A stretch of 64,000 bases of DNA, from assembly GCA_964344285.1 (NCBI GenBank), contig CAYFMM010000004.1, positions 43,347 through 107,346 of the forward strand, written 5' to 3'. A program made the position numbers and the translations under genes. The notes under the pieces were generated by a model. It saw only the letters and a list, made by a program, of their open reading frames with translations, was not told the DNA's origin and did no database searches. This DNA comes from an uncultured Methanosarcinales archaeon. GTDB taxonomy: Archaea > Nanobdellota > Nanobdellia > Woesearchaeales > GW2011-AR9. The number at the start of each line of letters is the position of its first letter. Position 1 is the first letter of the stretch. Positions 3,584 through 46,119 of this stretch are shown here, piece after piece.

Positions 3584-4288
3584 TCAAGCTCCGCCCAAAT
3601 ACACTTGTTTGATTTTCTTATCTTCTAAAATCTCTTTGCCACCGTGCAATACAACTCTTCCATTCTCAAGTAAATACGTCTGATTTGCAATTTCAATTGC
3701 CTTTTTTGCATTTTGCTCAACAACTAGAATTGAAATTCCATCCTTGCGTAACTCAACTAACATAGAAAACAACTCTTTTTGTAACTTAGGGCTGAGTCCT
3801 AAAGAAGGCTCATCCATTAACAATAACTTTGGATTTTGCATTAAAGCCCTTCCTAGTGCTAACATCTGCTGCTGCCCACCACTTAAAGAAAATGCTAACT
3901 CTTTTTTCTTCATTCTCAGTGCAGGAAAACGTTGATACACTTTTTTTAAATTTTCTTCTAGCTCTTCTTTATCCTTGATTTCTCTGCCTCCTAATAATAA
4001 ATTCTCCTCGATCGTAAGCTCACTAAAATTAATCTTTCCTTGTGGCACAAAACTAATTCCAATCTGCAGCAGCTCATGTGTCTTTAATCCATTAATCTCT
4101 TTACCTTCAAAAGACATTCTTCCTTGGCGTACATCTGCTATTGCAAATACTGACTTAAGCACGGTACTCTTTCCGGCTCCATTTGGGCCAATGAGTGCTA
4201 CTATTTCTCCTGGCTTTACATGAATATCTACTTCATGTAAAATCTGCAATTCTCCATATCCTGCATCTAATCCTGCTATTGTTAACAT
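3584..4288 (-). CDS. livF: branched-chain amino acid ABC transporter ATP-binding protein LivF
   Basis: Walker A 'GPNGAGKST', signature 'LSGGQQQM' and Walker B 'LLLMDEP' are present. The likely start is the internal Met (MLTIAGLDAGYG) rather than the ORF-track start at 4369. Confidence 0.85.
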   Translation of the reverse strand: MLTIAGLDAGYGELQILHEVDIHVKPGEIVALIGPNGAGKSTVLKSVFAIADVRQGRMSFEGKEINGLKTHELLQIGISFVPQGKINFSELTIEENLLLGGREIKDKEELEENLKKVYQRFPALRMKKKELAFSLSGGQQQMLALGRALMQNPKLLLMDEPSLGLSPKLQKELFSMLVELRKDGISILVVEQNAKKAIEIANQTYLLENGRVVLHGGKEILEDKKIKQVYLGGA

Positions 4289-4309
4289 ATTACAACCTCT
4301 GCAATGGTG

Positions 4310-4460
4310 GTGAGCAACGCCCTGACGGTTCAAAAAGAAACAACGATTTCTTTTGAACGCCAGAATCAACTTGTTGGTTCTGATGCGAGTCGAGGGACAC
4401 GGTGCAGTAATTAAAAAACAAATTCAATACGCGCCGTAATAGGTCCCGTGCCTTGCTCAC
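4310..4460 (+). ncRNA. candidate structured RNA element, copy A of a two-copy family
   Basis: GC-rich 151-nt island in an AT-rich genome, closed by the 8-bp helix GUGAGCAA/UUGCUCAC. It holds an internal hairpin with loop ACAACGAU, a 12-bp composite helix GGGAC-ACGGUGC/GCGCCGU-GUCCC, and motifs CGCCCUGACG, GCGAGUCGAGG, CAGUAAUU and CCGUGCC shared with 26666-26881. G-U pairs favour the + strand. Confidence 0.4.
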
Positions 4461-4477
4461 TCTCATCAAAATAATTT

Positions 4478-5599
4478 TCATTTTTCTATTTCTACTAATG
4501 TCTTATCTTTGATTTGTACCATTCTAATCGGAATACTTGGCTTTCTAGATTCTCCTACATCAACCTTTCCTGCTAATCCTTCATAACTTTGTAATGCTTG
4601 AATACTTGCTGGAAACTCTTTAACACTATTTCCTCCTGTAACATATGCCTCACCAATTAAATGCACAACATCATACCCCATACCTGCTTCGGCATTACCG
4701 TCTACTGCACTAAAAAGATCATCAAACCTCTTATTTTCTACAGTTCTAGGTATCATATATTCTTGGGCAGCAATATACACACCATCTAATTCTGCAATTA
4801 TTTTATGTTGATTTGTTGCAACAGGGGTATCAGTAAACACAACCATTCCTTCATACTGTTCATTAATCTGTCCAATAATTCTGTCTGGACGTAAATCAAA
4901 AACATATATTGCTTCTGGCTTTTTTTCTACTAATTTCAAAATTTGTGTTCGTGCATCAATTGCAGCACCATCAAAATATTCTAATCCCACGACTTCAATT
5001 CCCTCTTTTACAAAAGCAGGCTCTACAATATCCATAAGTGCATGACCAGCTTCAATGTCTAATGCAAGTAATCCCACACTTCCTACTTCTTGGTTCACGA
5101 AAAAATCAATTGCAATTTTGGCTAAATCTTCTGTTGTCTGAAAATACTGAAACACATTTTCATAATTTTGAAAGTCTGCATACGTAAGTGATGTAACAAC
5201 TGGAATACCTTTTTCTTTTGCTAACGGAATAATTGCTGCAGACGCACCAGACATTGTGGTAAAAATAACATCGGGATTTTGACTCATTATTGCATGAAAC
5301 GCATTTACTGCTTCTTTAGGATTGTTCTTGTTATCCTCTACAATCAACGTAACTTCAATTCCTTGCTCATGTAACTCTTTTGCTGCCTCTTTTGCTCCAA
5401 TCACAACATGAGTGCCATGCACAGCTGCTCCCCCAGAAAGTGTTGCAAGAACACCAATGCGTAATTCTTGTTCCTGCCCTTCCTGACGTACGTCATTTTG
5501 TTGGTTTGTGCACCCTACAATAATTAGGGCCATAACAACCATTAAACTTAATATCTGTAATCTTTTTATTCTCATTTTTTCATTCTCCCAAATATGCAT
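4478..5599 (-). CDS. branched-chain amino acid ABC transporter substrate-binding lipoprotein (second copy)
   Basis: Signal peptide plus lipobox 'LIIVGCTNQ' followed by a periplasmic-binding-protein type I fold (Leu/Ile/Val-binding family). The start is probably the second Met (MRIKRLQ...). Confidence 0.75.
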   Translation of the reverse strand: MHIWENEKMRIKRLQILSLMVVMALIIVGCTNQQNDVRQEGQEQELRIGVLATLSGGAAVHGTHVVIGAKEAAKELHEQGIEVTLIVEDNKNNPKEAVNAFHAIMSQNPDVIFTTMSGASAAIIPLAKEKGIPVVTSLTYADFQNYENVFQYFQTTEDLAKIAIDFFVNQEVGSVGLLALDIEAGHALMDIVEPAFVKEGIEVVGLEYFDGAAIDARTQILKLVEKKPEAIYVFDLRPDRIIGQINEQYEGMVVFTDTPVATNQHKIIAELDGVYIAAQEYMIPRTVENKRFDDLFSAVDGNAEAGMGYDVVHLIGEAYVTGGNSVKEFPASIQALQSYEGLAGKVDVGESRKPSIPIRMVQIKDKTLVEIEK

Positions 5600-9574: not shown

Positions 9575-10672
9575 TTATCTTTCCTTAGTCTCTAAAACAG
9601 AATTTTCAAACACAAAACCAACACGCAAAAATTTCTCTGTAACATAGATGTTGCTCTCTGTGTGCTTACTCAATTTACTCGCCTTAATCTTTGAACCAAC
9701 AAGTAATCCCATATATACCACAAGTTGATCCTCTAAAAACTCGTCAACTACCTCTTCTTGCTCAATTCTCTCACGTAACTGATGTGCAGCCTCCTGACCA
9801 ATTATTTCTGACTTTTTTCCTAGTTCTAACAATGCGTCTGCTCCTAAAATCGTTGGGTTATCAAAACTCATTTTTCCATCAACATCACTAAACATTGCCC
9901 ATAGTACAACTTCTCCTCCATTGCAAGAACTATTACTATACTCTGTCCTAATCATTATTGGCACATCTAAGTTAAGTAAACTTCCCTTAGCAGCTTTTGC
10001 AACTCGCTGTGCAATTTCTTTTTCTAACAAACTCTGTGAAACATTCACTACTCCCTTGATTTGTTGTAATTCTCCTCTCTTAGTCAAATTAATTAGTGCA
10101 CATTTATATCTTAATTCTTCACAAAATTCCCCTAAAGAACCATATTCTGTAATGTGAAACCTAGGTGTTACCTCAACAACAACTTCTCCTTGTCCTTTTG
10201 GAAAATAGCCTCGGCGAATTACCTTTAATTCTACTTTTTCTACAAACCTTTTCAAATGTGGGAATAATACATTTTGAATATAATCTACTGATGCCTGCCA
10301 TTTCCCACAAGTTCCTCCCGTAACCTGCAATGTAACTTTTCCAGGAGCAAACATACATACAGGGAGCACTGCTTGTAAAAATAGTGAAATACTTCCAGCA
10401 GTGCCAATATCAAAATTAAACTTTCCTCGCTTAATCTTTCCTGGGATAAAATGAACGTACTCACTTCCCAATGCAACCTCGTTTGTCTTTGCCCTGCAAA
10501 TCTCTTTTAATGCCTTAATTGCCGTAAGGTGCTGCGCCTTTAATCCTGGTTTTTCTCTGCCTGCTCGAATATTTCGGATTTTACATTCCTCGCCTGTTAA
10601 TGCAGAAAGAGCTAAAGCAGTTCTCACTAAGGCTCCTCCTCCCTCACCATAATTACCATCAATTTCTATCAT
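9575..10672 (-). CDS. rtcA: RNA 3'-terminal phosphate cyclase RtcA
   Basis: 'GEGGGALVRTALALSALTG', 'HLTAIKAL' and 'DIGTAGSISLFLQAVLP' match the RtcA family. 365 aa. Confidence 0.85.
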   Translation of the reverse strand: MIEIDGNYGEGGGALVRTALALSALTGEECKIRNIRAGREKPGLKAQHLTAIKALKEICRAKTNEVALGSEYVHFIPGKIKRGKFNFDIGTAGSISLFLQAVLPVCMFAPGKVTLQVTGGTCGKWQASVDYIQNVLFPHLKRFVEKVELKVIRRGYFPKGQGEVVVEVTPRFHITEYGSLGEFCEELRYKCALINLTKRGELQQIKGVVNVSQSLLEKEIAQRVAKAAKGSLLNLDVPIMIRTEYSNSSCNGGEVVLWAMFSDVDGKMSFDNPTILGADALLELGKKSEIIGQEAAHQLRERIEQEEVVDEFLEDQLVVYMGLLVGSKIKASKLSKHTESNIYVTEKFLRVGFVFENSVLETKER

Positions 10673-11718: not shown

Positions 11719-11733
11719 AAGGTTATAAATCAC
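11719..11733 (+). promoter_or_regulatory. archaeal TATA box (GGTTATAAAT) with purine-rich BRE, about 26 nt upstream of the candidate RNA 5' end
   Basis: 'cgaaaaggttataaatcac' sits at archaeal promoter spacing from 11752/11753. Confidence 0.45.
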
Positions 11734-11752: not shown

Positions 11753-11971
11753 GTGGGGACGTAGTATAAATTCACTCGCTCTTTGCGATGATGTACATCC
11801 TGGCTAGAAGTGGTCTTTAAGGCTGCTAGTCAAAATGGTCGGCTCCAGTCATGGAGCGCTGAGGCGCATGCCAATGAAGTTCGCGGTTGAAACCGACAGA
11901 TCTGGGAAGTAACATTATTGTTGCTCAGAAATTCGAAAGGTTTTCTACCACGAAAGTCCCAGCGTCCCCAC
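11753..11971 (+). ncRNA. candidate novel structured RNA (~219 nt), family unassigned
   Basis: GC-rich island with no ORF of 60 aa or more on either strand. A 9-bp terminal helix GUGGGGACG/CGUCCCCAC brackets it. Internal hairpins include GCUCCA-GUCA-UGGAGC, CUGGGA...UCCCAG, AGUAACA-UUAU-UGUUGCU and UGGCUAG...CUAGUCA. A T-tract UUUUUU follows immediately at 11972-11977 and a TATA box lies 26 nt upstream. Confidence 0.5.
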
Positions 11972-11993
11972 TTTTTTCACTTCTGAGATGTTT

Positions 11994-12635
11994 TTAATTC
12001 TTTGTTCTAATCTCTTTAAACCTTGTAATGTGCTTTTGATTTTTTGGATTTACTCTCCTGAAGAATGCATCAACCTCTTTTTGTCTACAAAGATAAAATT
12101 TCCAATACATTGTATTTTTGTCTTTATTTACTCCTCTTTCTATTTTTGTAGGGCTAAATCCTAGTTTTTCAAGAGCATCATGGAGAGAAGAAATAAGCCC
12201 AATTGATCCAAACTTAAAGTGGATCTGTGCATATCTGTCATATTTTCTATAAACGCATCCATCGGTGTCAAAAAGACCCCTAATCGCTTTAATTACATAT
12301 CTCTCTTTTAAGAAAATCCAAAGAGGAATCTCAACCTCATTGGCTACCTTATTGCCGGGCTTTAATCCTAATTCAACTAATATTTCTCCTATTTTAACAC
12401 TGCCATTTCTTAATAAATTAGCATTGCCTAAATTAGTTATACAAAATTTATAACTAAATTCTTCTTCAAATAATTTTTTCACATAATGTAGGTAATCTTG
12501 TTCCTTTTTATCTAGACAAACTGCAACTTGATACTTGTTGCTCCTTTTCTCTTTGTACAGACAACCATCACCTAGCATGATTCCAACAATCTCAGCTAAA
12601 TTTTCATTAAATTCCATTTTATATTCTCTTTTCAC
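11994..12635 (-). CDS. free-standing LAGLIDADG family endonuclease (two-motif, single chain)
   Basis: Two LAGLIDADG motifs, 'LAEIVGIMLGDGCL' and 'IRGLFDTDGCV', in a 213-aa protein. It is not embedded in an intron or an intein. Confidence 0.7.
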   Translation of the reverse strand: MKREYKMEFNENLAEIVGIMLGDGCLYKEKRSNKYQVAVCLDKKEQDYLHYVKKLFEEEFSYKFCITNLGNANLLRNGSVKIGEILVELGLKPGNKVANEVEIPLWIFLKERYVIKAIRGLFDTDGCVYRKYDRYAQIHFKFGSIGLISSLHDALEKLGFSPTKIERGVNKDKNTMYWKFYLCRQKEVDAFFRRVNPKNQKHITRFKEIRTKN

Positions 12636-25769: not shown

Positions 25770-26594
25770 TTAATTTCCAATTACTTTATACCAACTATAA
25801 AGTAACCTATTTGCAGCCTTTATAATCTCTTTGCCCTCTCCAGAAACTTTAATACAAGAACCAGACAACTCGACCTTTGCTTCTCCTTTCCCAACTAATT
25901 CAATTACTGGCATTCCTTGAGTATCTTCACAACTCAAAATCTTACGCTCTTCACATCCTACGGCCTCTTTAACACATGCTCCTTGGGAGTTTCTTCCAAT
26001 TCCCTGACCGACATTAGCACTAATTTCTCCCATTGCTACAACATAATTTCCATCTGCCATGCTTGGATCAATTGCTACATAGACTGTATCTCCTTGATTA
26101 AAAGAACTATTAATACTTCCCATGATTGGTACATCCTCAACTTGTGCAGGATTGTAATGCAAGGGGATTCTTTTCACATTACTCCCTACTTGAATATCTG
26201 TCCACCATAAATTATCTGCGAAAACTGAACTAAATCCGTTGTAAATAATACCTTCTTCCTCAGAAAGCTCGCCTTCATAATTTAGTGCATGTAACGCCTC
26301 AATATCCAATAACTCTGGTTCTACATTGTTATTATTGTATACATAAGATCCGATAAATACTAACGCAAAAATACCTATAATAACTGCGATTATAATCAAT
26401 AAATTTTTACTATCAGCAGATTGTTTATTCTCAGAATTGTCTTTCTTTTCAATAGCAACATCAGATTCTACTTTAGCGTCCTCTTTTTCATCCTGCTTCT
26501 TCTTAGACTGCTTAATCTCTTCAATCTCCTTAATAGAAGGAGCTACTTCCATTTCTTGTACTTCAATCTTTTCTGTGCTCAGATTATCGTCCAT
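25770..26594 (-). CDS. membrane-anchored hypothetical protein (acidic N-term, single TM, Cys-containing C-domain)
   Basis: TM 'LLIIIAVIIGIFALVFIGSYV'. The C-terminal domain has several Cys. Confidence 0.45.
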   Translation of the reverse strand: MDDNLSTEKIEVQEMEVAPSIKEIEEIKQSKKKQDEKEDAKVESDVAIEKKDNSENKQSADSKNLLIIIAVIIGIFALVFIGSYVYNNNNVEPELLDIEALHALNYEGELSEEEGIIYNGFSSVFADNLWWTDIQVGSNVKRIPLHYNPAQVEDVPIMGSINSSFNQGDTVYVAIDPSMADGNYVVAMGEISANVGQGIGRNSQGACVKEAVGCEERKILSCEDTQGMPVIELVGKGEAKVELSGSCIKVSGEGKEIIKAANRLLYSWYKVIGN

Positions 26595-26665
26595 TTGAAC
26601 TTAGCAAGTAAATCAATTTAAAAGCTTTATGGAGAACTAGGCTCTGTCCAGAAAGGAGGGTTTTT

Positions 26666-26881
26666 GTATACTAGCGCCCTGACGCATAAAAACCAACAAC
26701 GATTGGTTTTTGGCGCAAGAATAAAGTCTTCTGCTTTATTCTTTGCGTAGTCGAGGCGCATGATGCACTAATTGACGATAAGATAAATATGCATCATCCA
26801 CAATAAAGACAAAGTGCTTTATTGGGATCCAAACAAAGTAGTTTCTTTGTTCTGGATGATGGGCGCCGTGCCCTAGTATAC
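26666..26881 (+). ncRNA. candidate structured RNA element, copy B of the two-copy family
   Basis: Terminal helix GUAUACUAG/CUAGUAUAC. Hairpin AAAAACC-[AACAACGAUU]-GGUUUUU. Shares motifs CGCCCUGACG, GCGUAGUCGAGG, CACUAAUU, GCGCCGU and CCGUGCC with copy A. Carries a roughly 85-nt insertion relative to A. The T-tract UUUUU comes 2 nt after the 3' helix. Confidence 0.4.
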
Positions 26882-27001
26882 ATTTTTACTCCTTTCCGGA
26901 TGAAGCCGGAGAATTAAGATGATTGTAATAAAGAAATTTGGTCACATCTCTCTTTTTTTTGGTCATAACCTTTAAATAAGGATATTTGTCTTAAAGTAAG
27001 G

Positions 27002-29848: not shown

Positions 29849-29894
29849 TTTTTATTCACGATGCGCTTTTTATATAAGCTTAATCTAGAAAAAA

Positions 29895-29987
29895 GCCCCT
29901 GGAGGGATTTGAACCCTCGGTCTTTCGCTTATTGCCCGTTATTTATCATAACTCGAGGCGAACGCTCTACCGCTAAGCTACAGAGGC
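29895..29987 (-). tRNA. intron-containing tRNA (anticodon CAU, CGU or CGA depending on the splice junction)
   Basis: Acceptor GCCUCUG/CAGGGGC with discriminator U. D-arm GCUU-AGCGGUA-GAGC. Anticodon stem UUCGC/GCGAA interrupted by about 21-22 nt. Variable loop AGACC. T-arm GAGGG-UUCAAAU-CCCUC. No encoded CCA. Confidence 0.8.
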
Positions 29988-30476: not shown

Positions 30477-31886
30477 TTGTATGACACTTTCCAATTTGAG
30501 GTGAGAAAAGTGTTAGACTACAAAAATGATCCTTTACTGTTGGATAAGAAAACATTCAACGACCTAATTGGAGAAAAGAATGAAAACATTTTATTTCTCG
30601 ATAAAGAGTCTAAAATATTAAATCTTTTTTCTGCTTTTGTAAAAAAAAGTGATTTTATTAAAGATCATAAACTTAATCAACCATTACAAAAGACTGTTTA
30701 TGTCAAGGTAAGTAAAGAACTAATTAGGATTTTGAGAAATCGATGCAACAAAACAAACGATATTCAAAAGTTAATTGAAACTTATACCAAACGAAGAACT
30801 AACTGCAGAGACGCTGTTAACAGATGGTTTGTGTCAGGTATTTTTCCCTTCATTCTCCTTAGGATTTTATCTAAAAATAATACTGAATTTTCAGGTTGGA
30901 TTTCTGAAATAAGATATTTTACAGATTTTCTTGGTAAATCTAAACTCTATTCTCCGAAGACTTTGTCTGAATTGTTAAGTCATAAGCTTGTTTACTTTGT
31001 TGGGTGTTCAGTAGGAGATGGACATATTGATAAAAACGGTAAAAGGTGGGTATTGGTTGATGGAAGCTCTGATCCAAAAAGATTAATTCTTTCAGGAGAA
31101 TTTGTATCAAATTTAAGTAATCTGTTGAGTGATTATATTGATGCATTTAAGATTGTAAAACACAAAACGAAATATGAGTTAAAAGTGAATAATAAATTAT
31201 TTTGTAGGTTTCTAAATTTCTTTTTTGGGCTTCCTTATGGGTCAAAGAAAGAGAAAATATTGAGGGTTCCATTAATCCTAAAATATTCTGGTTCAAACTT
31301 AGAAAAATACTTTTGGAGGGGATGTTTCGATACTGATGGGAGTGCAGTTCGCTCCATTGGTTTTTGTTCTTCTGATAAGAACTTAATTAGTCAGTGTGAT
31401 GATTACCTTAAATCATTGGGAATAAAGGTAAATTTGGGTAAGAAAAACATTAGAATTCCAGTTCCGAGTCTTAAAGAATGGACTTCTATTGGCTTTGCTC
31501 ATCCTAGAAAACAAATAGAATTCTTAACGACACTTAAGAAAGGAGCGAAATTTAAATTACTAAAAATAAAGGAAAAAGACAATGTGCCTTATGCGTTACG
31601 TAGAATTCATAGATTATTACAAGTTGATAGGAACGGATATAGGGTGAGGATTAATTCGTCTGCTTTGAAAGAACAGGAAATACCTGTTCAAAACGTCAAT
31701 GATATCATGAAAAAACTGTTTAACTGTGAGTTTAGACAAGCATCAAATAATCTTTATTACTTTAAATCTAAAAAAGTATATAGCTATTTACGGAGTATTT
31801 TTATATATGAACCTGCTTGGCAAGCAATAAATGATGATGAAGAGGAGCAATTCCTCTGTAATTGGAATGATGTGTGGAGAAAATGA
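30477..31886 (+). CDS. LAGLIDADG-domain protein with about 170-aa N-terminal extension
   Basis: Two LAGLIDADG motifs, 'LVYFVGCSVGDGHI' and 'FWRGCFDTDGSA'. The stop overlaps the ABCE1 start (ATGA). Confidence 0.65.
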   Translation: MYDTFQFEVRKVLDYKNDPLLLDKKTFNDLIGEKNENILFLDKESKILNLFSAFVKKSDFIKDHKLNQPLQKTVYVKVSKELIRILRNRCNKTNDIQKLIETYTKRRTNCRDAVNRWFVSGIFPFILLRILSKNNTEFSGWISEIRYFTDFLGKSKLYSPKTLSELLSHKLVYFVGCSVGDGHIDKNGKRWVLVDGSSDPKRLILSGEFVSNLSNLLSDYIDAFKIVKHKTKYELKVNNKLFCRFLNFFFGLPYGSKKEKILRVPLILKYSGSNLEKYFWRGCFDTDGSAVRSIGFCSSDKNLISQCDDYLKSLGIKVNLGKKNIRIPVPSLKEWTSIGFAHPRKQIEFLTTLKKGAKFKLLKIKEKDNVPYALRRIHRLLQVDRNGYRVRINSSALKEQEIPVQNVNDIMKKLFNCEFRQASNNLYYFKSKKVYSYLRSIFIYEPAWQAINDDEEEQFLCNWNDVWRK

Positions 31887-37495: not shown

Positions 37496-37840
37496 TTGGA
37501 CTTCCAAAGTATACGTCAGTATACCATGAGCAAAAAAGAGGCAAATCTAACCTGTACTACTAAAATTTCTAAACTAAATCTAGTTAGGATTCAAAAGCTC
37601 AAAAGCTCAGGTTATGAACCAAATGACTATATTTTACAACAAGCTTTACAACTCTTAGAAAAACATAACAAGCCTCTTGGATTTGTCTCAACAAAACAAA
37701 AAATAACTTCTTCTACCAAAATTTCTGCAAAAACTCTCTCTCAAATTCAAAAATTAAAACCATCTGGATATGAACCCAATGACCTAATCATTCACAACGC
37801 GCTTTCTTTACTTGAAAAACAAAGAGGTAAGAAAAAATGA
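37496..37840 (+). CDS. small protein with internal tandem about 40-aa repeat (KLKxSGYEPNDxIxxALxLLEK x2)
   Basis: The repeats are 'KISKLNLVRIQKLKSSGYEPNDYILQQALQLLEK' and 'KISAKTLSQIQKLKPSGYEPNDLIIHNALSLLEK'. The stop overlaps the start of the giant gene (ATGA). Confidence 0.45.
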   Translation: MDFQSIRQYTMSKKEANLTCTTKISKLNLVRIQKLKSSGYEPNDYILQQALQLLEKHNKPLGFVSTKQKITSSTKISAKTLSQIQKLKPSGYEPNDLIIHNALSLLEKQRGKKK

Positions 37841-40800
37841 AACGAAACACCTCTGGATTATTTAATAGGCCTAAAAAATTAGCAATAGCATTTATTCTAT
37901 TTGTACTTCTCTTATTTACATTCTTTAATTTAGAACAGCCAGATAACAACGCAAAAGAAATAATTGAGCTAAAAACAGCAACAATTCTTGACACAGGTGG
38001 AAAAGAAGTTCATGATTACTCAAAAGAACTCCTGCAAAAAGATAATTCTTGGATTACATTTTATGCAAATCAAACACTTCAAATAGAATTTACAAAAGAA
38101 CTAGACAAAACTAAAGATATCAAATTTTATACAAAAAATAATCTTTTGCCTAATGCAACTTTAGAACTTTATGATCCTGATACAAACAACCTAATTACAA
38201 CCTTGCCGATAACAGCTAAAGAAAAATATCATAAGTTATTCTTACAAGATCTTACAAAAAATCAATCTACATTTAATGTAAAATTAAATTCTTTAAATCC
38301 AGATGACTTTATTGAAATTGATCACATTATTGACCCCTCAATTAGTGCGTGTGGAACACTTACAGATAATACAGAACCTAATATTTTAACACAAGATGTA
38401 ACAGACACAGACACATGTTTTGAATTAAGTGCACATCATATTATTCTTGATTGTCAAGGTTACAACATTACCTATGGTACAACTTCAGCAACACAACAAT
38501 ATGGGGTAAATACCTTAGGCTGGGATAATTTTACTGCTATAAACTGTGAGATCCATAATGGGGGTACGGGCCAACAAAACCATGGGATTCAAATTGACAC
38601 AGGGTCCATAGGTTCAAGAGTAATTAATTCAACCATTACAGTTACGGGATCATCTTCAAGGGCAATTAATATTCTTGGAAGTAACGATTCACAGATTATT
38701 AACTCTTCTTTGTATAACACAGGATCTTTTGGTGTAAGTGTCTACTTAACAAGCTCTTTAAACAACACTATTTTTAATTCAAGCTTATACTCTAGAAGCG
38801 CGTCAGGTCAAGCAATTTATTTAAGTGCATCTGACAATAACTTTCTTTTAAATAGTACTTTAGTAACAACATCTACGGTCAATCCAATCCAACTCTTAAA
38901 CAGTGATTATAATACGATTGATAGGGTTAATGTTTCCTCTGGTGGTTACGGTTTAACCATCTCTTCAGCTTATTATAATAACATCACTCGCTCTAGAATT
39001 ACCTCGTTTTATTCAACAATTTTTGCTAATGCTGATGGTGATTTTAATCTGTTTGAAAATAATACTCTAATCTCAACTGGAACAAATCAATTTTATTCTT
39101 CGGTAAGTTTATCGTCAGCTGATAATAATATTTTTTATAACAACCTTATGAACCAGACAAGAACTTCTGGGGGCCCTGTAGTGTACTTAGATAACAACGC
39201 TGATAATAACACATTTGAAAAAAATATACTTGATATGGCAAGGACATCTTTTACAGCAGATGGGTATAGTTCAGCTATATTTGGTAATAGAATAAGTGGG
39301 GTAAACGTCACTCATAATATTTTTTTAAGCGATACTGACCAACAAAGTTTCTATTTTGGAGGGATTGGAGCTTCATTTTATGATCATTATTTTTTCAATA
39401 ATACACATAACAATGACCCCATTTATTACATTGGTCCAAAAGATCATCGAACTGTCTTTAATCATACCACTGTAAGGCTACTTTGGATTGCAAAGGATAA
39501 TTTTACTGTAAATAATGTTTCTGTAAATCACACTGATGGAATGCGTGTAGCTTATGCAAATAACGTAGTGATCAATGATTCCTTTTTTGTTCCTCAAAAA
39601 AGAGCTGGCCTTGCAGCACTACATCTTCGTGGAGCAGTAAACACAACAGTTAACAACACTAGGCTTACAACTTCTCAAACCACTTCTGAGGGAATTTATC
39701 TTGAAGATACGTTTAATAACACTATTTATAATGTTACTATTCAAACCTCAGGATCTACTGGGAGGGGAATTTATTTTGACGATGCAAATAACAACACAAT
39801 CTCAAACTCAAGAATTACTACTACTTCCACTACCGCAGATGGGTTAGTTATTTTTAATGGAGATGGCAATTTAATTCAATATATCAACATTTCAACGGGC
39901 TCTGCTGATGGGGTTGAACTAACTACTGCAACAAGTAATAATGTCTCTTATTGTAGGGTAAGTTCCTCTAACGCAGCGTATAATACAAATAGTAATTCAA
40001 ATCAAAATAATTATTTTTCACATAATTATTTAGAATCCTCTGGCTCAAATTATAATGCTGTTTCTTTATCAGCGGCTGATTTTAACACTCTTCATGCAAA
40101 TGTAATTAATCAGAGTTCAACATCTGGAAATAATCCAGTTCTTTTGATTAACACTGCACAAAATAATACATTCACATACAATAAAATATACGGTGCTCGA
40201 AATACATTTTCTGAGACAGCGGGTTCTGGAGTTAGGATTTCTGGTTCTCCCTATAACAATTTCTCTCATAACATTATTAACACAACTCTGAATTTAGGAA
40301 GAGAAAACTTAGGCCTTTATGTAGTTGCAGCTTTTGATACACATCAGCATCATTATTTTTTCAATAACACACATAACAATGATCCGATCTATTATTTTGG
40401 ACCTCAAGATTCAAGCTCTTCATTCTCACACTCAAACCCCAAACAGCTCTATGTTGCTAAAGATGGGTTTACATTAAAAAATGTCACATTGAATCAAGTA
40501 GATGGAATTCGAGTTTTATTTGCTGATGATATTTCAATTCAGAGCTCTTTAGTTAATATCACAAATCAGACTAATATTGAGGCAATTTATTTAGATAATG
40601 CAAATAATGTAACAATTCAAAATACCACTACACTAACTAACAAGGGAGGAGCGTTTAGTGTTTATTTTGATACTACAGAAAATAGTACTATTCGAAATTC
40701 AAATTTTGAATCAAAAAGCGCAGGTTCACTGTATTTTGTATCATCAGAAAGTAATCAAGTCTTAAACTCTACAATTTATTCCTTTGGAGCCTCAGTCTAT

Positions 40801-43800
40801 TTTTCCAATGCTCATAAAAATAATGTTTTATTCTCAAACATTACAAACATTGGCTCATTTGGGATTCAAACAATTTCTCCTTCAAACAATAACACTTTTG
40901 CGTATAACCGAATTATTAGCTCTGGCTCAGCAATAAGCTTGAATGAAGGTGGTAAATCACTCACTAATGTCTCTTATAACTATTTAGAAGGAAATAGCTC
41001 TGTTTCAGATACACTTGCAATAAATGCACCAGATAACGTTACTATTGCCTATAACATTATTAATAATTCTGGGGGTGGTCCAGCAGTAGCAGAAATTTTT
41101 AACTCTGATAATATTACATTTATTTACAATAATCTTTCTTCTTCAAGGGCAACATATATCTCAACTGGGATGCTTTATTTATCCTCTTCAAAGAATGGAT
41201 ATTTTGCCCATAACAGGTTAATTGGAGAAACTCAAACTAAACTAACTATTGCTTTTAATGCAGAAAATAACAGCTTTAACAACAACTACTTTGGTATATC
41301 AAATGGCTCATCCAATGCACGATCAATAGAAGCAGCAAGTGGAGGTAATAATTATTCTACGCAACTATTTACAAATAACATCTTTGTAGATTTTGGAATT
41401 GATGTAGATGGATTTAACTTTACGCTTTTGAACTCTACATTTAGGTCCCTTGACAACACAGTAGATGTTTTCCCTGGATATTTGAATTTTAATGGATCTA
41501 TGGGGTATGAAATCAATGAAGATAACCTCTACCTCAAAAATAACGTAAGTTCCTTTGGAACAGAAAAAACAGATTTTATTTTAGATTTCAATAAAACCAT
41601 GAATGTTTCTTTTTACGGCCAAGATTGTTTAGGGTATAATATTTATCACAACAATTCGTTCATTAATGATTATACTACTGCCCTTACTACAAATATTGTA
41701 GCAACACAAGCTGATGCAGGCGGAGGATCTTGTGGCAACAATGTCTGTTCAAACATTCAATGTAATGCTGGGACTCTCTCCTTTACTGTACCATTTTGGA
41801 GTGCATTTGCAATTCAAAGCATTGGTTTGGTAGATGGAGCAGCGCCAGCAGTAACATTCCTAAACCCAGTTAATAATTCAAATTTCTCAACACAGATTCA
41901 GGCTTTTAATGCATCTGTAATTGATGAAACTGCGCTAGATAGTGTTATCTTTATGTTTCCAAACAACCAAACCCCATTTAACAAAACTGCAGTAAATAAC
42001 TCTGGTAATTGGAATACAAATGTTGACATGAACACATTAACCGAAGGGTTACATATGAGTTTTGTCTTTGCAAATGATACTTCTAATAACGTAAACCAAG
42101 TAGAAAATGTATCATTCTATGTAGATAGGACCCCTCCAATTATAAACATCTTAAACCCTGCAATTAATACATCAAATTCAACCGTAGGAATTCGCTTTAA
42201 TGTAACTGACTTACATCGCTTCCTAAATTGTTCACTCTACATCAACAACACTTTAAACACTACCAATACATTCACACCAAATGGCACAAATGTATATCTT
42301 GTATCGCAAGCCCTTAACGACGCGTATTACAACGCAACTGTGACTTGTATTGACCCATCTGGTAATTTGGCAAGTAATTCTTCTATTACCATCTTAGTAG
42401 ATACACTTGTTCCAGCAGTCACCCTTACTAATCCTACTAACAGTTCAAACTTTAGTTCTGGTTTACAAGATGTCAACGCAACTATTTTTGAAGCAAACCC
42501 TAAGACAATCTTATTTAGGTTAGACAATAGCACTGGAAGAGATTTTAATCTTTCTCTAAACAACATCTCTGGCAATTGGAATAACAACCTAAACATCTCA
42601 GCACTTGTAGAAGGAACGCACTCTGCGTATATTTATGCTTTAGACCCAGCAGGAAACTTAAATGACACAGAAAACATAAATTTCATTGTAGATAGAACTC
42701 CGCCTGTTGTAAATAATCAAAATGTATCATACCTTACAGCAGACACAACTCCGACTCTTTGGGTAAATTTCACTGACACACTTTCTGCAGTAGCCAACTG
42801 TAGTCTCTTTATGGATGGTGCTATACAAGACTATACTGTAATCCCGCCCGATACCAACACGCCTCTCACACCAACAACAGCTTTAACTGAAGGAGCATAT
42901 CTTACAAACTTTACTTGTGTAGACTACTCAAACAATTCGGCAACATCATCAACAATAACTGTAACTATAGACTTATTTCCTCTTTTTGTAAATATCATTA
43001 GTCCTGCAAATAACTCTAATCTCTCAACGGAAGTGCAGTCTTTTAATGCTAGTATTCAAGAGGCCAACCCTGACACAATTATTTTTGTTTATGATAATGC
43101 TACGGGAGTTGACTTTAACAAAACTCCCACAAACCGTTCAGGTAATTGGAATGTAAGTCTTAACATTTCGACACTTACACAAGGAAGACATTTGTTTAGA
43201 GTTTTTGCAAATGATTCTGCAGGAAACACAGACTATGCTCAAAATATCTCCTTTACTGTAGACCGAGACGCACCAAATGTGACTCTATTAAACACTTCTT
43301 TGACTACAAGTTCCCCTCTTCCTTCAGTCTGGATAAACACAACTGATAACTTTTCTATTGTGACAAACTGTTCTCTTTTTATTGCAGGAACCCTACATGA
43401 TACTTCAACAGTTATTAACACAACCCCGACAATGCTTACAGCCTCAACGCCTTTAGGAGATGGGAATTATCTAACAAATGTAACTTGTACTGATTACTCT
43501 GGAAATCAAGGAAACTCTACTACGATTACTCTAACAGTAAACCTAGCTCCTCTTACTGTCGTTATTACAAACCCTGCAAACAATTCAAACCTCAGTTCGG
43601 GTAACCAAGCTTTTAATGCCTCTGTACTTGATACAAATGTTGACACGGCCATTTTCCAATTTACCAATGCAACTGGAAATAATTTTAACATCACTGCAAC
43701 AAATGTTTCTGGCAATTGGAATACATTACTAAATGTAGACTCTTTTGTTCAAGGTCAACATCAAATGCGAGTCTTTGCAAATGATACCTTAGCAAATACC

Positions 43801-46119
43801 AATACTAATTCCTTCATAAATTTCATTGTAGATCGAGATGCACCAAATGTAACTTTGCTAAATACTTCTTTTAGCACAACAGACACACAACCAAATATTT
43901 GGGTTAATGTAATTGATAATTTTTCAGCAGTTACATCTTGTGATTTAGATCTGGCAGGAACGACATATAGCACTACAACTGTTATAAATAACACGAACAC
44001 CTCACTTCCCGTAAACACAACTCTTGCTGCAGGCATCTATCCTGTAAATGTGAGCTGTACAGATTATTCTGGTAATCAAGGAAATGCAACTGGGATTAAC
44101 GTTACTATTGCTGCTGTTTCAACACCTGCTCCTACAGCAAGTAGTGGTGGTGGAGGTTCTAGTTCTTCAGGTGGTGGAGGCGGAACTATATTTGAATGTA
44201 GAACAAATGCAGACTGTCCTGTTGGAAAATACTGTGTAAATCATCAATGTCTCAAAATCTTTGATCTTAAAATAGTGCATGCTGACTCACCAATTGAACC
44301 AGGAGACCAATTAGATTTCAGTTATTTTATTAAAGGAATTGCTGCAATTGAAGGGGACGTAACTCTTGACTTCTGGTTAGAAGACGTACAAGGAAACAAG
44401 ATCACCTCTGGAAGAGACATCATTTTTGTTGGAACGTTTGAACAAAAAACGGAGCAAGGACACTTAGCACTTCCTTCCTCTACTCCTCTTGGACAACACC
44501 GTTTTGCAATCACTCTTTACTTTGATGGTTACGAAATCACCGCTCATAGGGACATAGAAGTAGTGCGTCAAGCTCCGTTACATATTGACATTATTACACA
44601 AAGAGAGCAAAATCTTACTGCAAACAATGCATGGCAATTAACAACTACTTTACAAAGTAATAAGGATAAAATCTCTTCACTAGATGTTAAAAGACAGCTA
44701 ACCAAACATAACTCTTTAGCGTGGTTTACAGAGTCACCTGTATTACTCAATAAAACAGCAACTATTCAAGATACAATTCCAGGTCTAACAAGAGGCGAAT
44801 ATACTCTTGAGGTCCTTGCCTCAGATAATGGAGAAGTAGTTGGCCAACACAAAGAATTAGTCAAAATCTCTGGACCTTTACCAACTTCACTTCTTCTCTT
44901 AGCACTCTTAGTGCTTGCTCTATTACTACTGCTCGTTTACATCTTGTACTACATATGGAAACATAAAGACAAAGACCTTGCAGCGTTACTCAAAAGAATT
45001 CATGCCCTGCAACATAAAATTCACAAATTACATCTTAAGGACCTTCCTCGAGAACAAGCTACGCGCCTAATTAGAATGGCACACAATACAAGTGATTCCT
45101 TAGCCATGCTTGCAGCACAAGCCAAACAATTACACAGGAAACAAACAGCAAAAAAACTAAACAAAGAAGAATTTCACCAACAACTTGCAAACCTTGGAGA
45201 AAGAATAGATCCTCTTGCAGATGTAGTAAAAAAATTAGTACTCTTAGATACACAAGGGCATCAAGCTCTTGCAAGAGAAAAACAATTACAAAAAGAACAA
45301 AAGAAAAACATCTCTAAATTAGAGCAAGATGATGAACACTTTTCAGAACCAAAACCAGTTCATGTTGCACATGGTGCAAGAACGATCTTGAATGTTTCTA
45401 AGTCAGAAATTCAAGAGAAATCAAAAGCAAAAAAACAACTCTTGCGTAAAATAATCACTCAAGTAAAAGAACCTATTGCAACCGAGCCTTCTTTAGAGCT
45501 CCCTTCCTTCAAAAAAGAACCTCTTGCTGTAAAAGAAAAAGCATTCAATCCAGAAAAAGTTAAACAAGAAGTGACAAACTTCACAGAAAAAATAGAACAA
45601 ATCTCTAAAAAAGATATTTCTGTAATCTCCGATCATGATATTACTGTACTACTTCAAGAGCTCAAACAACTTCAGCTTAGGTTACACAACTTCAAAACAC
45701 TTACAGGTAGTGGTTATGTTATTTTCCCAGGTCAATCTAAAATCCTAGAAAAACTCAAGAAATGTCACAGACTAATTGAACAAAAATTAGTAGAAAAAAG
45801 AATTTACAACCTTGTGACTGGAAAAGAAGATCAACTACGAAAAATCAAAAAAACAAAAGATGTTGCAAAGCTTCCATACAAACAGGCCCTCAAAAAGCAA
45901 GCAGAAAAACTTCGCCATGAAATAGAACTTGCAAAACAAAAGATGGCACAACAAGATACGCAGATCAAAAGCAATGTTATCTCTGCTCTTCCTTCATCAA
46001 CAAAAACAAGTGGAAAAAAAGTATCTTTACGTAAGAGACTAAAAAAGCTAAATCAAAGACAAGACATTCCTTTAACAGAAGTTGAGCTCATCGAGCAACA
46101 TTTAGCAGAACTGGAATAA
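37837..46119 (+). CDS. giant (2760 aa) cell-surface adhesin-like protein: beta-helix repeats, Ig-like repeats, Cys-knot, TM anchor, K-rich cytoplasmic coiled-coil tail
   Basis: N-terminal signal/TM, then about 1300 aa of N/S/T-rich parallel beta-helix-like repeats saturated with NxS/T sequons. At least five about 150-aa modules follow ('VDRTPPIINILNP', 'VDRTPPVVNNQNV', 'VDRDAPNVTLLNTS' x2). Next come a Gly/Ser linker, a CRTNADCPVGKYCVNHQC domain, the TM 'LLLLALLVLALLLLLVYILYYIW' and about 400 aa of K/E/Q-rich coiled coil. Confidence 0.7.
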   Translation: MKRNTSGLFNRPKKLAIAFILFVLLLFTFFNLEQPDNNAKEIIELKTATILDTGGKEVHDYSKELLQKDNSWITFYANQTLQIEFTKELDKTKDIKFYTKNNLLPNATLELYDPDTNNLITTLPITAKEKYHKLFLQDLTKNQSTFNVKLNSLNPDDFIEIDHIIDPSISACGTLTDNTEPNILTQDVTDTDTCFELSAHHIILDCQGYNITYGTTSATQQYGVNTLGWDNFTAINCEIHNGGTGQQNHGIQIDTGSIGSRVINSTITVTGSSSRAINILGSNDSQIINSSLYNTGSFGVSVYLTSSLNNTIFNSSLYSRSASGQAIYLSASDNNFLLNSTLVTTSTVNPIQLLNSDYNTIDRVNVSSGGYGLTISSAYYNNITRSRITSFYSTIFANADGDFNLFENNTLISTGTNQFYSSVSLSSADNNIFYNNLMNQTRTSGGPVVYLDNNADNNTFEKNILDMARTSFTADGYSSAIFGNRISGVNVTHNIFLSDTDQQSFYFGGIGASFYDHYFFNNTHNNDPIYYIGPKDHRTVFNHTTVRLLWIAKDNFTVNNVSVNHTDGMRVAYANNVVINDSFFVPQKRAGLAALHLRGAVNTTVNNTRLTTSQTTSEGIYLEDTFNNTIYNVTIQTSGSTGRGIYFDDANNNTISNSRITTTSTTADGLVIFNGDGNLIQYINISTGSADGVELTTATSNNVSYCRVSSSNAAYNTNSNSNQNNYFSHNYLESSGSNYNAVSLSAADFNTLHANVINQSSTSGNNPVLLINTAQNNTFTYNKIYGARNTFSETAGSGVRISGSPYNNFSHNIINTTLNLGRENLGLYVVAAFDTHQHHYFFNNTHNNDPIYYFGPQDSSSSFSHSNPKQLYVAKDGFTLKNVTLNQVDGIRVLFADDISIQSSLVNITNQTNIEAIYLDNANNVTIQNTTTLTNKGGAFSVYFDTTENSTIRNSNFESKSAGSLYFVSSESNQVLNSTIYSFGASVYFSNAHKNNVLFSNITNIGSFGIQTISPSNNNTFAYNRIISSGSAISLNEGGKSLTNVSYNYLEGNSSVSDTLAINAPDNVTIAYNIINNSGGGPAVAEIFNSDNITFIYNNLSSSRATYISTGMLYLSSSKNGYFAHNRLIGETQTKLTIAFNAENNSFNNNYFGISNGSSNARSIEAASGGNNYSTQLFTNNIFVDFGIDVDGFNFTLLNSTFRSLDNTVDVFPGYLNFNGSMGYEINEDNLYLKNNVSSFGTEKTDFILDFNKTMNVSFYGQDCLGYNIYHNNSFINDYTTALTTNIVATQADAGGGSCGNNVCSNIQCNAGTLSFTVPFWSAFAIQSIGLVDGAAPAVTFLNPVNNSNFSTQIQAFNASVIDETALDSVIFMFPNNQTPFNKTAVNNSGNWNTNVDMNTLTEGLHMSFVFANDTSNNVNQVENVSFYVDRTPPIINILNPAINTSNSTVGIRFNVTDLHRFLNCSLYINNTLNTTNTFTPNGTNVYLVSQALNDAYYNATVTCIDPSGNLASNSSITILVDTLVPAVTLTNPTNSSNFSSGLQDVNATIFEANPKTILFRLDNSTGRDFNLSLNNISGNWNNNLNISALVEGTHSAYIYALDPAGNLNDTENINFIVDRTPPVVNNQNVSYLTADTTPTLWVNFTDTLSAVANCSLFMDGAIQDYTVIPPDTNTPLTPTTALTEGAYLTNFTCVDYSNNSATSSTITVTIDLFPLFVNIISPANNSNLSTEVQSFNASIQEANPDTIIFVYDNATGVDFNKTPTNRSGNWNVSLNISTLTQGRHLFRVFANDSAGNTDYAQNISFTVDRDAPNVTLLNTSLTTSSPLPSVWINTTDNFSIVTNCSLFIAGTLHDTSTVINTTPTMLTASTPLGDGNYLTNVTCTDYSGNQGNSTTITLTVNLAPLTVVITNPANNSNLSSGNQAFNASVLDTNVDTAIFQFTNATGNNFNITATNVSGNWNTLLNVDSFVQGQHQMRVFANDTLANTNTNSFINFIVDRDAPNVTLLNTSFSTTDTQPNIWVNVIDNFSAVTSCDLDLAGTTYSTTTVINNTNTSLPVNTTLAAGIYPVNVSCTDYSGNQGNATGINVTIAAVSTPAPTASSGGGGSSSSGGGGGTIFECRTNADCPVGKYCVNHQCLKIFDLKIVHADSPIEPGDQLDFSYFIKGIAAIEGDVTLDFWLEDVQGNKITSGRDIIFVGTFEQKTEQGHLALPSSTPLGQHRFAITLYFDGYEITAHRDIEVVRQAPLHIDIITQREQNLTANNAWQLTTTLQSNKDKISSLDVKRQLTKHNSLAWFTESPVLLNKTATIQDTIPGLTRGEYTLEVLASDNGEVVGQHKELVKISGPLPTSLLLLALLVLALLLLLVYILYYIWKHKDKDLAALLKRIHALQHKIHKLHLKDLPREQATRLIRMAHNTSDSLAMLAAQAKQLHRKQTAKKLNKEEFHQQLANLGERIDPLADVVKKLVLLDTQGHQALAREKQLQKEQKKNISKLEQDDEHFSEPKPVHVAHGARTILNVSKSEIQEKSKAKKQLLRKIITQVKEPIATEPSLELPSFKKEPLAVKEKAFNPEKVKQEVTNFTEKIEQISKKDISVISDHDITVLLQELKQLQLRLHNFKTLTGSGYVIFPGQSKILEKLKKCHRLIEQKLVEKRIYNLVTGKEDQLRKIKKTKDVAKLPYKQALKKQAEKLRHEIELAKQKMAQQDTQIKSNVISALPSSTKTSGKKVSLRKRLKKLNQRQDIPLTEVELIEQHLAELE

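Follow-up and report, generated by a model that had tools for sequence, protein, structure and literature searches.

The window analysed here, a 64-kb stretch (64,000 nucleotides) of contig CAYFMM010000004.1, carries two copies of a structured, unannotated element on the same strand (+), which are referred to as copy A (positions 4310-4460, 151 nt) and copy B (26666-26881, 216 nt). The DNA is archaeal, as judged by the presence of an aEF-1beta gene and a tRNA gene with a 26-nt intron, and the second binding protein of its liv operon (SBP2) has its nearest homologues among proteins labelled Candidatus Woesearchaeota, in agreement with the DPANN origin guessed in an earlier sequence-only reading. 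Both sequences singled out by that reading were recovered in the window. Copy A lies within the liv operon, which is encoded on the - strand in the order SBP1, livH, livM, livG, SBP2, copy A, livF, and thus parts livF from the remaining genes, as had been noted. Copy B lies between two divergent genes that start at ATG 26594 (-) and ATG 27002 (+).

Shared architecture of the two copies

Inspection of copies A and B reveals four collinear unpaired motifs at matching spacing: CGCCCUGACG, the loop CAACGA, AGUCGA(GG) and (CC)GUGCC. The exact 10-mer CGCCCTGACG is present at only two sites in 64 kb, with 0.23 expected when one mismatch is allowed, and a fuzzy scan of the window for the four-motif combination returned copies A and B alone, on the + strand. 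Both copies fold more stably than dinucleotide shuffles, with z values of -3.95 (A) and -7.97 (B) on the + strand and -4.85 (A) and -7.86 (B) on the - strand. The GC content of copy A is 46% and that of copy B 41%, against 36% for the window; the original description as a "GC-rich island" therefore holds relative to the surroundings but not in absolute terms.

Minimum free energy (MFE) folds of the full sequences, together with an explicit pair list, yielded one architecture for both copies, which in copy A (4310-4460) runs P1, J1/2, Px around P2 and P3, J3/4, P4a/P4b, J4/1 and P1'. P1 is the closing helix of the element. In copy A its 5' strand GUGAGCAA (4310-4317) forms 8 Watson-Crick pairs with UUGCUCAC (4453-4460), and in copy B GUAUACUAG (26666-26674) forms 9 with CUAGUAUAC (26873-26881). 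J1/2 follows with the same letters, CGCCCUGACG, in both copies (4318-4327 in A and 26675-26684 in B). A CGCCC strand then leads into Px, a possible 4-bp pairing of UGAC with GUCG that includes one U-G wobble (4323-4326 with 4389-4392 in copy A) and has the hairpins P2 and P3 inside it.

Hairpin P2 of copy A (4329-4357) comprises 11 bp with one bulged A and reads GUUCAAAA(A)GAAA-[CAACGA]-UUUCUUUUGAAC, the loop CAACGA at 4341-4346 being identical in copy B, where P2 (26687-26712) has 10 bp and reads (U)AAAAACCAA-[CAACGA]-UUGGUUUUU(G). In both copies the base of P3 is a conserved CGC/GCG, above which come a bulge and an upper stem of 9 bp; the bulge is 2 nt and the stem contains one U-G in copy A (4358-4387), and the helix is made of 6 + 9 bp around a 1-nt bulge in copy B (26713-26748). 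J3/4, AGUCGA, is again the same (4388-4393 and 26749-26754), and a single A separates Px from P4a.

The P4 domain of copy A (4394-4447) consists of P4a (GGGAC/GUCCC), an internal loop AAUAG and P4b (ACGGUGC/GCGCCGU, one U-G), which give the composite helix GGGAC-ACGGUGC ... GCGCCGU-AAUAG-GUCCC. P4a encloses P4b in both copies, and P4b carries a large AU-rich loop (UAAUU...AAUA) that is 25 nt long in copy A, with UAAUU at its start and AAUA at its end. In copy B the domain (26755-26867) is closed by GGCGC/GCGCC as P4a, inside which P4b (26760-26797) is followed by two hairpins, P5 (26798-26826) and P6 (26827-26857), that are found only in this copy, at the site of the 5-nt internal loop AAUAG of copy A. 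The strand returning to P1 is GUGCC (J4/1) in both, at 4448-4452 and 26868-26872.

Two of the motif matches proposed earlier required correction. What had been written as GCG(A/U)AGUCGAGG is GCG-AGUCGAGG in copy A and GCG-U-AGUCGAGG in copy B, a 1-nt insertion and not a substitution. Similarly, GCGCCGU is not a homologous single-stranded motif, being the 3' strand of P4b in copy A and the 3' strand of P4a plus J4/1 in copy B; the true match in this region is between GUCCC-GUGCC of A and GCGCC-GUGCC of B. Copy B additionally contains CAUCAUCCA (26792-26800), which can pair either with AUGAUG(CA) of P4b or, over 9 bp, with UGGAUGAUG (26853-26861). The CAUCAUCCA/UGGAUGAUG pairing, which copy A lacks, may represent an alternative conformation.

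Covariation and strand preference

Both copies were trimmed by hand to their common positions, which gave a core alignment of 146 columns that was gap-free in MAFFT. The trimming was fitted to the structure, with bulges and the extra hairpins of copy B removed, and the counts that follow lean towards structure to that extent. Neither copy lacks any of the 46 core pairs: 28 are identical, 15 are double changes and 3 are single changes involving a wobble, with none broken. The double changes, which come from one pair of sequences on this hand-trimmed alignment, are spread over P1 (6), P2 (3), P3 (2), P4a (2) and P4b (2). None of 500 shuffles reached any of five pairing measures, and sliding the partners by 1-3 columns lowered the paired fraction to ∼40%. 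RNAalifold on the core and independent MFE folds of the full-length copies recovered the same helices.

Identity between copies A and B is 64% at paired positions and 100% in J1/2, the P2 loop, J3/4 and J4/1. The structure appears to have been kept by selection, and this identity pattern is the reverse of neutral decay. Helices that change sequence and keep their pairing, together with invariant junctions and loops, make up the pattern seen in functional folded RNAs. The earlier description of a two-copy family with one conserved secondary structure and compensatory helix changes, as opposed to a decaying repeat, is thus upheld by the pair list and by the covariation.

The G-U wobbles all arise on the + strand and are located in P3b and P4b of copy A, in Px of both copies and in three helix-end pairs of copy B. 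By contrast, the pair lists of copies A and B contain no A-C mismatch on the + strand, which is what a G-U pair on the - strand would appear as. The pair list and core alignment therefore agree with the claim that G-U pairs occur only when the + strand is folded. The energy of the consensus structure was better on the + strand by 1.3-2.4 kcal/mol in each copy, and the RNAalifold consensus gave -60.8 for the + strand versus -56.1 for the - strand. Taken as folding models, these values favour, but do not prove, the + strand as the RNA strand.

Genomic setting and search for further copies

The relatives L133, L139 and L155 have the same liv gene order, with SBP2 proteins that are 59-60% identical, and their distance from the SBP2 stop codon to the livF ATG is 3, 0 and 0 nt, respectively. 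In the window, the corresponding spacer is 189 nt long (4289-4477, -), between the SBP2 stop codon at 4478-4480 and the livF ATG at 4286-4288. Copy A is flanked within it by 17 and 21 nt, the livF-side flank holding a Shine-Dalgarno-like ribosome-binding site GAGGU for livF (the complement of 4295-4299, -). The C terminus of SBP2 and the N terminus of livF are intact and can be aligned with those of the relatives. Because the spacer is absent in three relatives and both flanking proteins are intact, copy A (with its flanks) is, on this comparison of gene spacing, a recent, lineage-specific insertion between SBP2 and livF. As such, it would be neither an ancestral livF leader nor part of liv regulation in the relatives of this lineage. 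The earlier suggestion of a structured leader or attenuator for livF is not supported, given the 0-3 nt that separate SBP2 and livF in the three relatives. A gene for RNA 3'-terminal phosphate cyclase (RtcA; 9575-10672, -) lies directly upstream of the liv operon, and no link between it and the element was found.

A survey of 45 gene starts in the window showed that the usual promoter has a TATA box of the TTTATAAA/TTTAAA type, whose end is ∼21-26 nt upstream of the ATG, a spacing that implies, on promoter sequence, mRNAs that are mostly leaderless. Most of the surveyed genes have no Shine-Dalgarno sequence, and operon-internal genes such as livF use GAGG-type sites. Each of the divergent genes around copy B has its own TATA box, and because copy B is located between the two promoters, it falls outside both neighbouring mRNAs; for the 26594 mRNA this position follows from promoter inference and not from mapping. 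The TATA box ATTTAAAAG (26616-26624), which lies 41 nt before P1 of copy B, serves the leaderless gene with ATG 26594 (-). On the - strand, copy B is consequently upstream of the TATA box of its neighbour and outside the transcript, and the leader reading finds no support here either. Being near-symmetric and located 41 nt ahead of P1, this box may in addition act as promoter for a + strand RNA whose leader would be ∼18 nt long. A run of five T residues (26883-26887, +) starts one base after P1 of copy B, a position comparable to that of the T6 runs behind the tRNA gene and behind a structured RNA at 11753-11971. The neighbours of copy B encode proteins of 274, 267 and 167 aa, which have no Pfam match and none of which resembles a reverse transcriptase.

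At the gathering threshold, an Rfam scan of the whole window detected only the tRNA at 29894-29987. At E ≤ 10, both copies gave hairpin-level noise of 12-17 bits, compared with thresholds of 45-200; in the Rfam check that had been proposed, copies A and B match no Rfam 15 family, including tRNA, signal recognition particle (SRP) RNA, RNase P, riboswitches, ribozymes, HEARO and Y RNA. Scored with a covariance model (R1) derived from the core alignment, copy A reached 142 bits and copy B 76 bits. No other match in the window exceeded 20 bits, the next best being reverse-strand echoes of copies A and B.

Related Woesearchaeota-like contigs (∼160 kb) were fetched by means of homologues of the two flanking proteins, and the element was found in them neither by fuzzy motifs nor by R1 with filters off. 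The best R1 matches in these relatives, at 14.8 bits in L034, were inspected and dismissed. The L034 homologue of the gene at 25770-26594 has a 123-nt upstream gap with no element match. Because the density of the window, two copies in 64 kb, predicts several matches, the family is absent or unrecognisable in those relatives, which belong to different genera.

The public collections scanned, in none of which the source genome is included, gave a similar result. In genome_contigs, the pattern CGCCCTGACG-N(6-30)-AACAACGATT had 31 matches, approximately the number expected by chance and all but one bacterial; the archaeal match, the sole one inspected, was in GC-rich DNA lacking the other motifs and was rejected. 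A three-motif pattern had 9 matches in metagenome_contigs, 7 of them in unrelated GC-rich DNA. The other two, in L141 and L148, are AT-rich and ORF-poor (ORF, open reading frame), the matching region does not fold (z +0.36), and they were also rejected. L141 (1-13305) and L148, both of JGI sample Ga0224511, have 35% GC and almost no ORFs of at least 120 aa over 13 kb, and are probably eukaryotic or otherwise non-coding DNA in which the pattern matched by chance. Three patterns run against viral_contigs gave chance matches or none, and blastn of copy A against plasmids and of copy B against phages gave no match. A 63-aa ORF overlapping copy A, compared with a protein database in the hope of miscalled ORFs at other copies, yielded no candidates, and literature searches on the motifs and on non-coding RNAs (ncRNAs) of DPANN archaea and Woesearchaeota returned nothing relevant. 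Of the check for further copies put forward earlier, the covariance model was thus built and run, and no third copy emerged from any searched collection.

Logan short-read contigs from two samples end within copy A, two at 4337 from the right and one at 4358 from the left, overlapping by 22 nt. In a k=31 de Bruijn graph, such ends hint, through an inference about the assembler, that the 38-nt segment 4329-4366 (P2 and the start of P3) is present in another context. At copy B, the left contig ends at 26823 and the right one starts at 26828, leaving a 4-nt gap (26824-26827) and no overlap; these ends were dropped as a repeat signal, the gap fitting local variation or low coverage. One 22.5-kb Logan contig spans exactly from copy B to copy A. 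The loci with contig ends inside the copies are L150, L153, L154, L032 and L159.

Candidate explanations, known systems and other window features

The best explanation of these results, to which we give slightly less than an even chance, is that copies A and B are old paralogues of an undescribed, lineage-restricted family of small structured RNAs encoded on the + strand, with copy B as a stand-alone gene and copy A as a secondary insertion. To the fold, covariation, + strand wobble bias, insertion and flanking signals described above, this explanation adds transcription of the + strand, a role for the conserved bases, an effect on the operon and a spread of copies. P1 (8-9 bp) would bring the ends of the element together, and the invariant strands CGCCC, A and GUGCC would form a central junction, from which Px (UGAC/GUCG) would carry P2 and P3 and the P4 domain could take extra hairpins. 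Selection would act on pairing regardless of helix sequence and on ∼30 unpaired bases, through which a protein or a further nucleic acid may recognise the element. Preceded by a TATA box at 41 nt and with an oligo-T terminator immediately behind P1, copy B would represent the stand-alone gene form, and copy A a promoter-less secondary insertion of the bare P1-to-P1' unit between SBP2 and livF.

Within the operon mRNA, copy A would be transcribed in reverse, and its complement is predicted still to fold, at ∼-54 kcal/mol. The insertion would break an ancestral translational coupling of SBP2 and livF and place a stable structure behind SBP2 that might shield the upstream message or cause its partial termination, with livF now dependent on its own GAGGU ribosome-binding site.

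Several observations weigh against a + strand RNA family. Copy A has no recognisable + strand TATA box, because of which its + strand RNA may never be made, and a promoter-less unit inside an operon also has the look of a selfish repeat. The full-length MFE of copy A is lower on the - strand (-54.5 vs -50.6 on the + strand), and the energy gap between strands is small. The covariation is a single comparison of two sequences on a hand-trimmed alignment. No partner protein was evident beside either copy among the neighbours examined, and with no copy in the ∼160 kb of relatives or in the scanned public collections, conservation is seen only within this genome so far.

The strongest competitor, less likely yet still to be reckoned with, is a selfish, non-autonomous dispersed repeat such as a MITE (miniature inverted-repeat transposable element), ERIC or a bcr1-like element, which would spread as DNA or single-stranded DNA, require its fold only for mobilisation or tolerance and affect mRNA stability as a by-product. 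The clean promoter-less insertion of copy A between two abutting genes fits such a repeat, as do the shared orientation of the two copies and the contig ends inside copy A, which would be accounted for by another near-identical copy elsewhere. In its size (150-220 bp) and its terminal inverted repeats the element recalls MITE-like repeats of bacteria, for example bcr1, and wobbles confined to one strand would also fit a single-stranded DNA intermediate. With MITEs of archaea and bacteria it has in common the size, the terminal inverted repeat, the lack of an ORF and the intergenic insertion. However, the terminal inverted repeats are the least conserved part of the element (2-4 of 8 pairs alike, depending on register) and the internal unpaired motifs are invariant, the opposite of what a MITE would show; in the inner register, GUGAGCAA of copy A and GUAUACUAG of copy B differ on both sides in 6 of 8 pairs. 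Helices free to change in sequence alone, combined with invariant junctions and loops, are not a feature of MITEs, of REP and ERIC elements or of DNA operators. The flanks of copy A (...AATGGTG / TCTCATC...) contain no direct repeat that would indicate a target-site duplication, and at copy B the sole candidate is a T-run (TTTTT / ATTTTT), a sequence that carries no information where the DNA is AT-rich. Neither a cognate transposase nor an integrase or reverse transcriptase was detected among the 30 window ORFs scanned, only two copies exist in 64 kb, and none was found in the viral, plasmid and phage collections. The small-RNA family and the selfish repeat overlap as explanations, since an RNA gene that is mobile would fit either.

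A bolder proposal, which we consider distinctly unlikely, is that the copies represent a new class of structured RNA, or of folded single-stranded intermediate, propagating in reduced DPANN genomes: a mobile RNA gene or a ribozyme- or ribonucleoprotein (RNP)-type element, and not a MITE or an ordinary small RNA. The set CGCCCUGACG / CAACGA / AGUCGA / GUGCC would then be a conserved catalytic or protein-recruiting core around which the helices evolve freely.

A cis-regulatory RNA encoded by the - strand, whether riboswitch, attenuator or processing element, is improbable, and somewhat more so than that proposal; it would act on livF at copy A and, at copy B, on the gene at 25770-26594, which encodes a 274-aa membrane-anchored protein. 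Both copies do have a gene directly downstream on that strand, 21 nt from the livF ATG and 71 nt from ATG 26594, copy A is surely transcribed on the - strand if the operon is, and the - strand MFE is as good as or better than that of the + strand. Against this, the orthologous operons of three relatives lack the spacer, copy B lies upstream of a TATA box (26616-26624) that stands at the standard leaderless distance from ATG 26594, and every wobble becomes an A-C mismatch on the - strand. The two downstream genes, moreover, share no common function, and no Rfam riboswitch or leader matched.

A site in double-stranded DNA, such as an operator, a recombination site or a cluster of palindromes related to replication, bound by protein and giving no functional transcript, is very improbable. 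Short conserved motifs flanked by inverted repeats, a GTATAC palindrome within P1 of copy B and the lack of a promoter at copy A are what such a site might present, but a duplex gives no reason for the compensatory upkeep of five helices amid sequence drift. It also leaves the bulges and the one-strand-only G-T wobbles unexplained, and the multi-branched layout with a tolerated 60-nt two-hairpin insertion in copy B is what folded single strands typically show. A fortuitous likeness, or an ordinary duplication in neutral decay, could appeal to there being only two copies and to the frequency of hairpins in an AT-rich genome, but is refuted for practical purposes by the 10-mer confined to two sites (0.23 expected with one mismatch), the four motifs collinear only there, and the 15 double changes with none broken, 0 of 500 shuffles and z of -4 to -8. 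The probability left over from the small-RNA family, the selfish repeat, the - strand regulator, the DNA site and chance goes to something else.

Among known systems, the closest documented analogue is, by analogy of form, bcr1 of the Bacillus cereus group, described as a mobile, transcribed repeat of ∼155 bp with compensatory changes at the RNA level (PMC3184786). The likeness, as far as that description extends, is to a structured intergenic element of ∼150 bp that is non-syntenic between relatives and whose cruciform-like RNA fold is kept by pair compensation (PMC3184786). The same source presents bcr1 as bacterial, present in tens to hundreds of copies, bordered by 5-bp direct repeats and alike between copies over the whole length (PMC3184786). 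Of the element described here, by contrast, two copies are known, copy A lacks direct repeats, the unpaired motifs are invariant and the stems strongly diverged, and the host is an archaeon; no sequence similarity to bcr1 was found.

REP elements sit after malE and hisJ, and bacterial ERIC/REP-type elements alter the stability of upstream mRNA. Copy A resembles ERIC and REP-BIME sequences in being a stable folded element between cistrons of a binding-protein-dependent ABC transporter, right after a binding-protein gene (for ERIC, as described in PMC3184786). ERIC and REP differ in being simple imperfect palindromes with conserved arms that occur in many copies, and REP has a RAYT transposase of its own, whereas the present element is multi-branched, lacks conserved arms and has its wobbles on the strand opposite to the operon. 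An REP with a GTAG or CGTC tag was rejected, the tag being on the wrong side of the hairpin.

GC-enriched ncRNA genes of AT-rich archaea (tRNA, SRP RNA, RNase P RNA, C/D and H/ACA RNAs) are known from GC-island screens. The element is likewise GC-enriched in 36% GC DNA and has a closing helix followed by oligo-T, with an upstream TATA box at copy B, but it differs from such genes in having no Rfam match, C/D or H/ACA boxes, k-turn or bulge-helix-bulge (BHB) motif and in being multi-copy, with one copy promoter-less in an operon. By inspection, a box C/D RNA, for which C (RUGAUGA) and D (CUGA) boxes would have to form a k-turn by the terminal stem, or an H/ACA RNA, with its pseudouridylation pocket and ACA box, was rejected: CUGA of J1/2 pairs with GUCG in Px, no tandem G-A pairs lie by P1 or P4a, and there is no two-sided pocket. 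A BHB intron or circular RNA precursor was likewise set aside on inspection, P1 being an uninterrupted 8-9 bp in both copies and the flanks not forming a BHB (two 3-nt bulges around 4 bp).

The a1/a2 inverted repeats that close retron RNAs vary in sequence from one retron to the next. The element shares its multi-hairpin form and a size within 150-250 nt with retron msr-msd and omega RNAs, which are tied to mobile elements, and omega RNAs of IS200-IS605 elements are reported in archaea in PMC12558985. The element differs from both in that neither copy has a reverse transcriptase or TnpB beside it, an Rfam match or a guide-like free end. A retron ncRNA was rejected on the neighbours, which are liv genes at copy A and the 274-, 267- and 167-aa proteins at copy B, none of them like a reverse transcriptase. 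The hammerhead ribozyme, whose core is CUGANGA ... GAAA at a three-way junction, was excluded because J1/2 has CUGACG(G/C) without A9, J3/4 has GUCGA followed by G-C instead of GAA and A-U, and there was no Rfam match. A type I toxin-antitoxin system was discarded for lack of a conserved small ORF, and a riboswitch or 5' leader on the - strand for the position of copy B upstream of the TATA box at 26616-26624 and the spacer of copy A not being conserved in L133, L139 and L155; twister, group II domain V, omega RNA and integron attC were rejected by inspection.

The element belongs among structured non-coding elements or dispersed structured repeats. It is real, structured, unannotated and lineage-restricted, and at two copies it is a lead and not a discovery. 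To our knowledge, very few ncRNAs beyond tRNA, rRNA, SRP RNA and RNase P RNA have been described in DPANN archaea such as Woesearchaeota. The small genomes of DPANN archaea leave little room for junk, and an element with five helices kept by compensation and ∼30 invariant unpaired bases is probably functional. The position of copy A between translationally coupled transporter genes, both of them intact, provides a natural experiment on the spread of the element and on its tolerance or exploitation by an operon. Should more copies confirm the family, it would merit a new Rfam-type entry, and would be a candidate new RNP or the archaeal equivalent of the structured intergenic repeats of bacteria (bcr1, ERIC).

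Other features of the window were recorded alongside the element. A structured GC-enriched island of ∼220 nt (11753-11971, +), unrelated to copies A and B, has a closing helix of 9-10 bp (GUGGGGACG/CGUCCCCAC), a TATA box 22 nt upstream (11722-11730) and a T6 run at 11972-11977. Its MFE is -83 on the + strand versus -72 on the - strand, with a z of -4.7, and no Rfam match was obtained even at E ≤ 10; on the folding model it looks like an unannotated ncRNA gene. A LAGLIDADG homing-endonuclease-like ORF (11994-12635, -; 213 aa, Pfam LAGLIDADG_3 and LAGLIDADG_2) lies 22 nt from this island and is free-standing, with no visible surrounding intron or intein. The tRNA gene with the 26-nt intron (29894-29987, -) scores 61 bits in Rfam and is directly followed by its T6 run; ARAGORN did not assign its anticodon. 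A 469-aa ORF (30477-31886, +) has as its only Pfam match a LAGLIDADG_3 segment at residues 277-323, which could reflect an intein or an inserted endonuclease within a protein not recognised otherwise. A single ORF of 2760 aa occupies 37837-46119 (+) of the window; giant proteins of the surface type are frequent among DPANN archaea.

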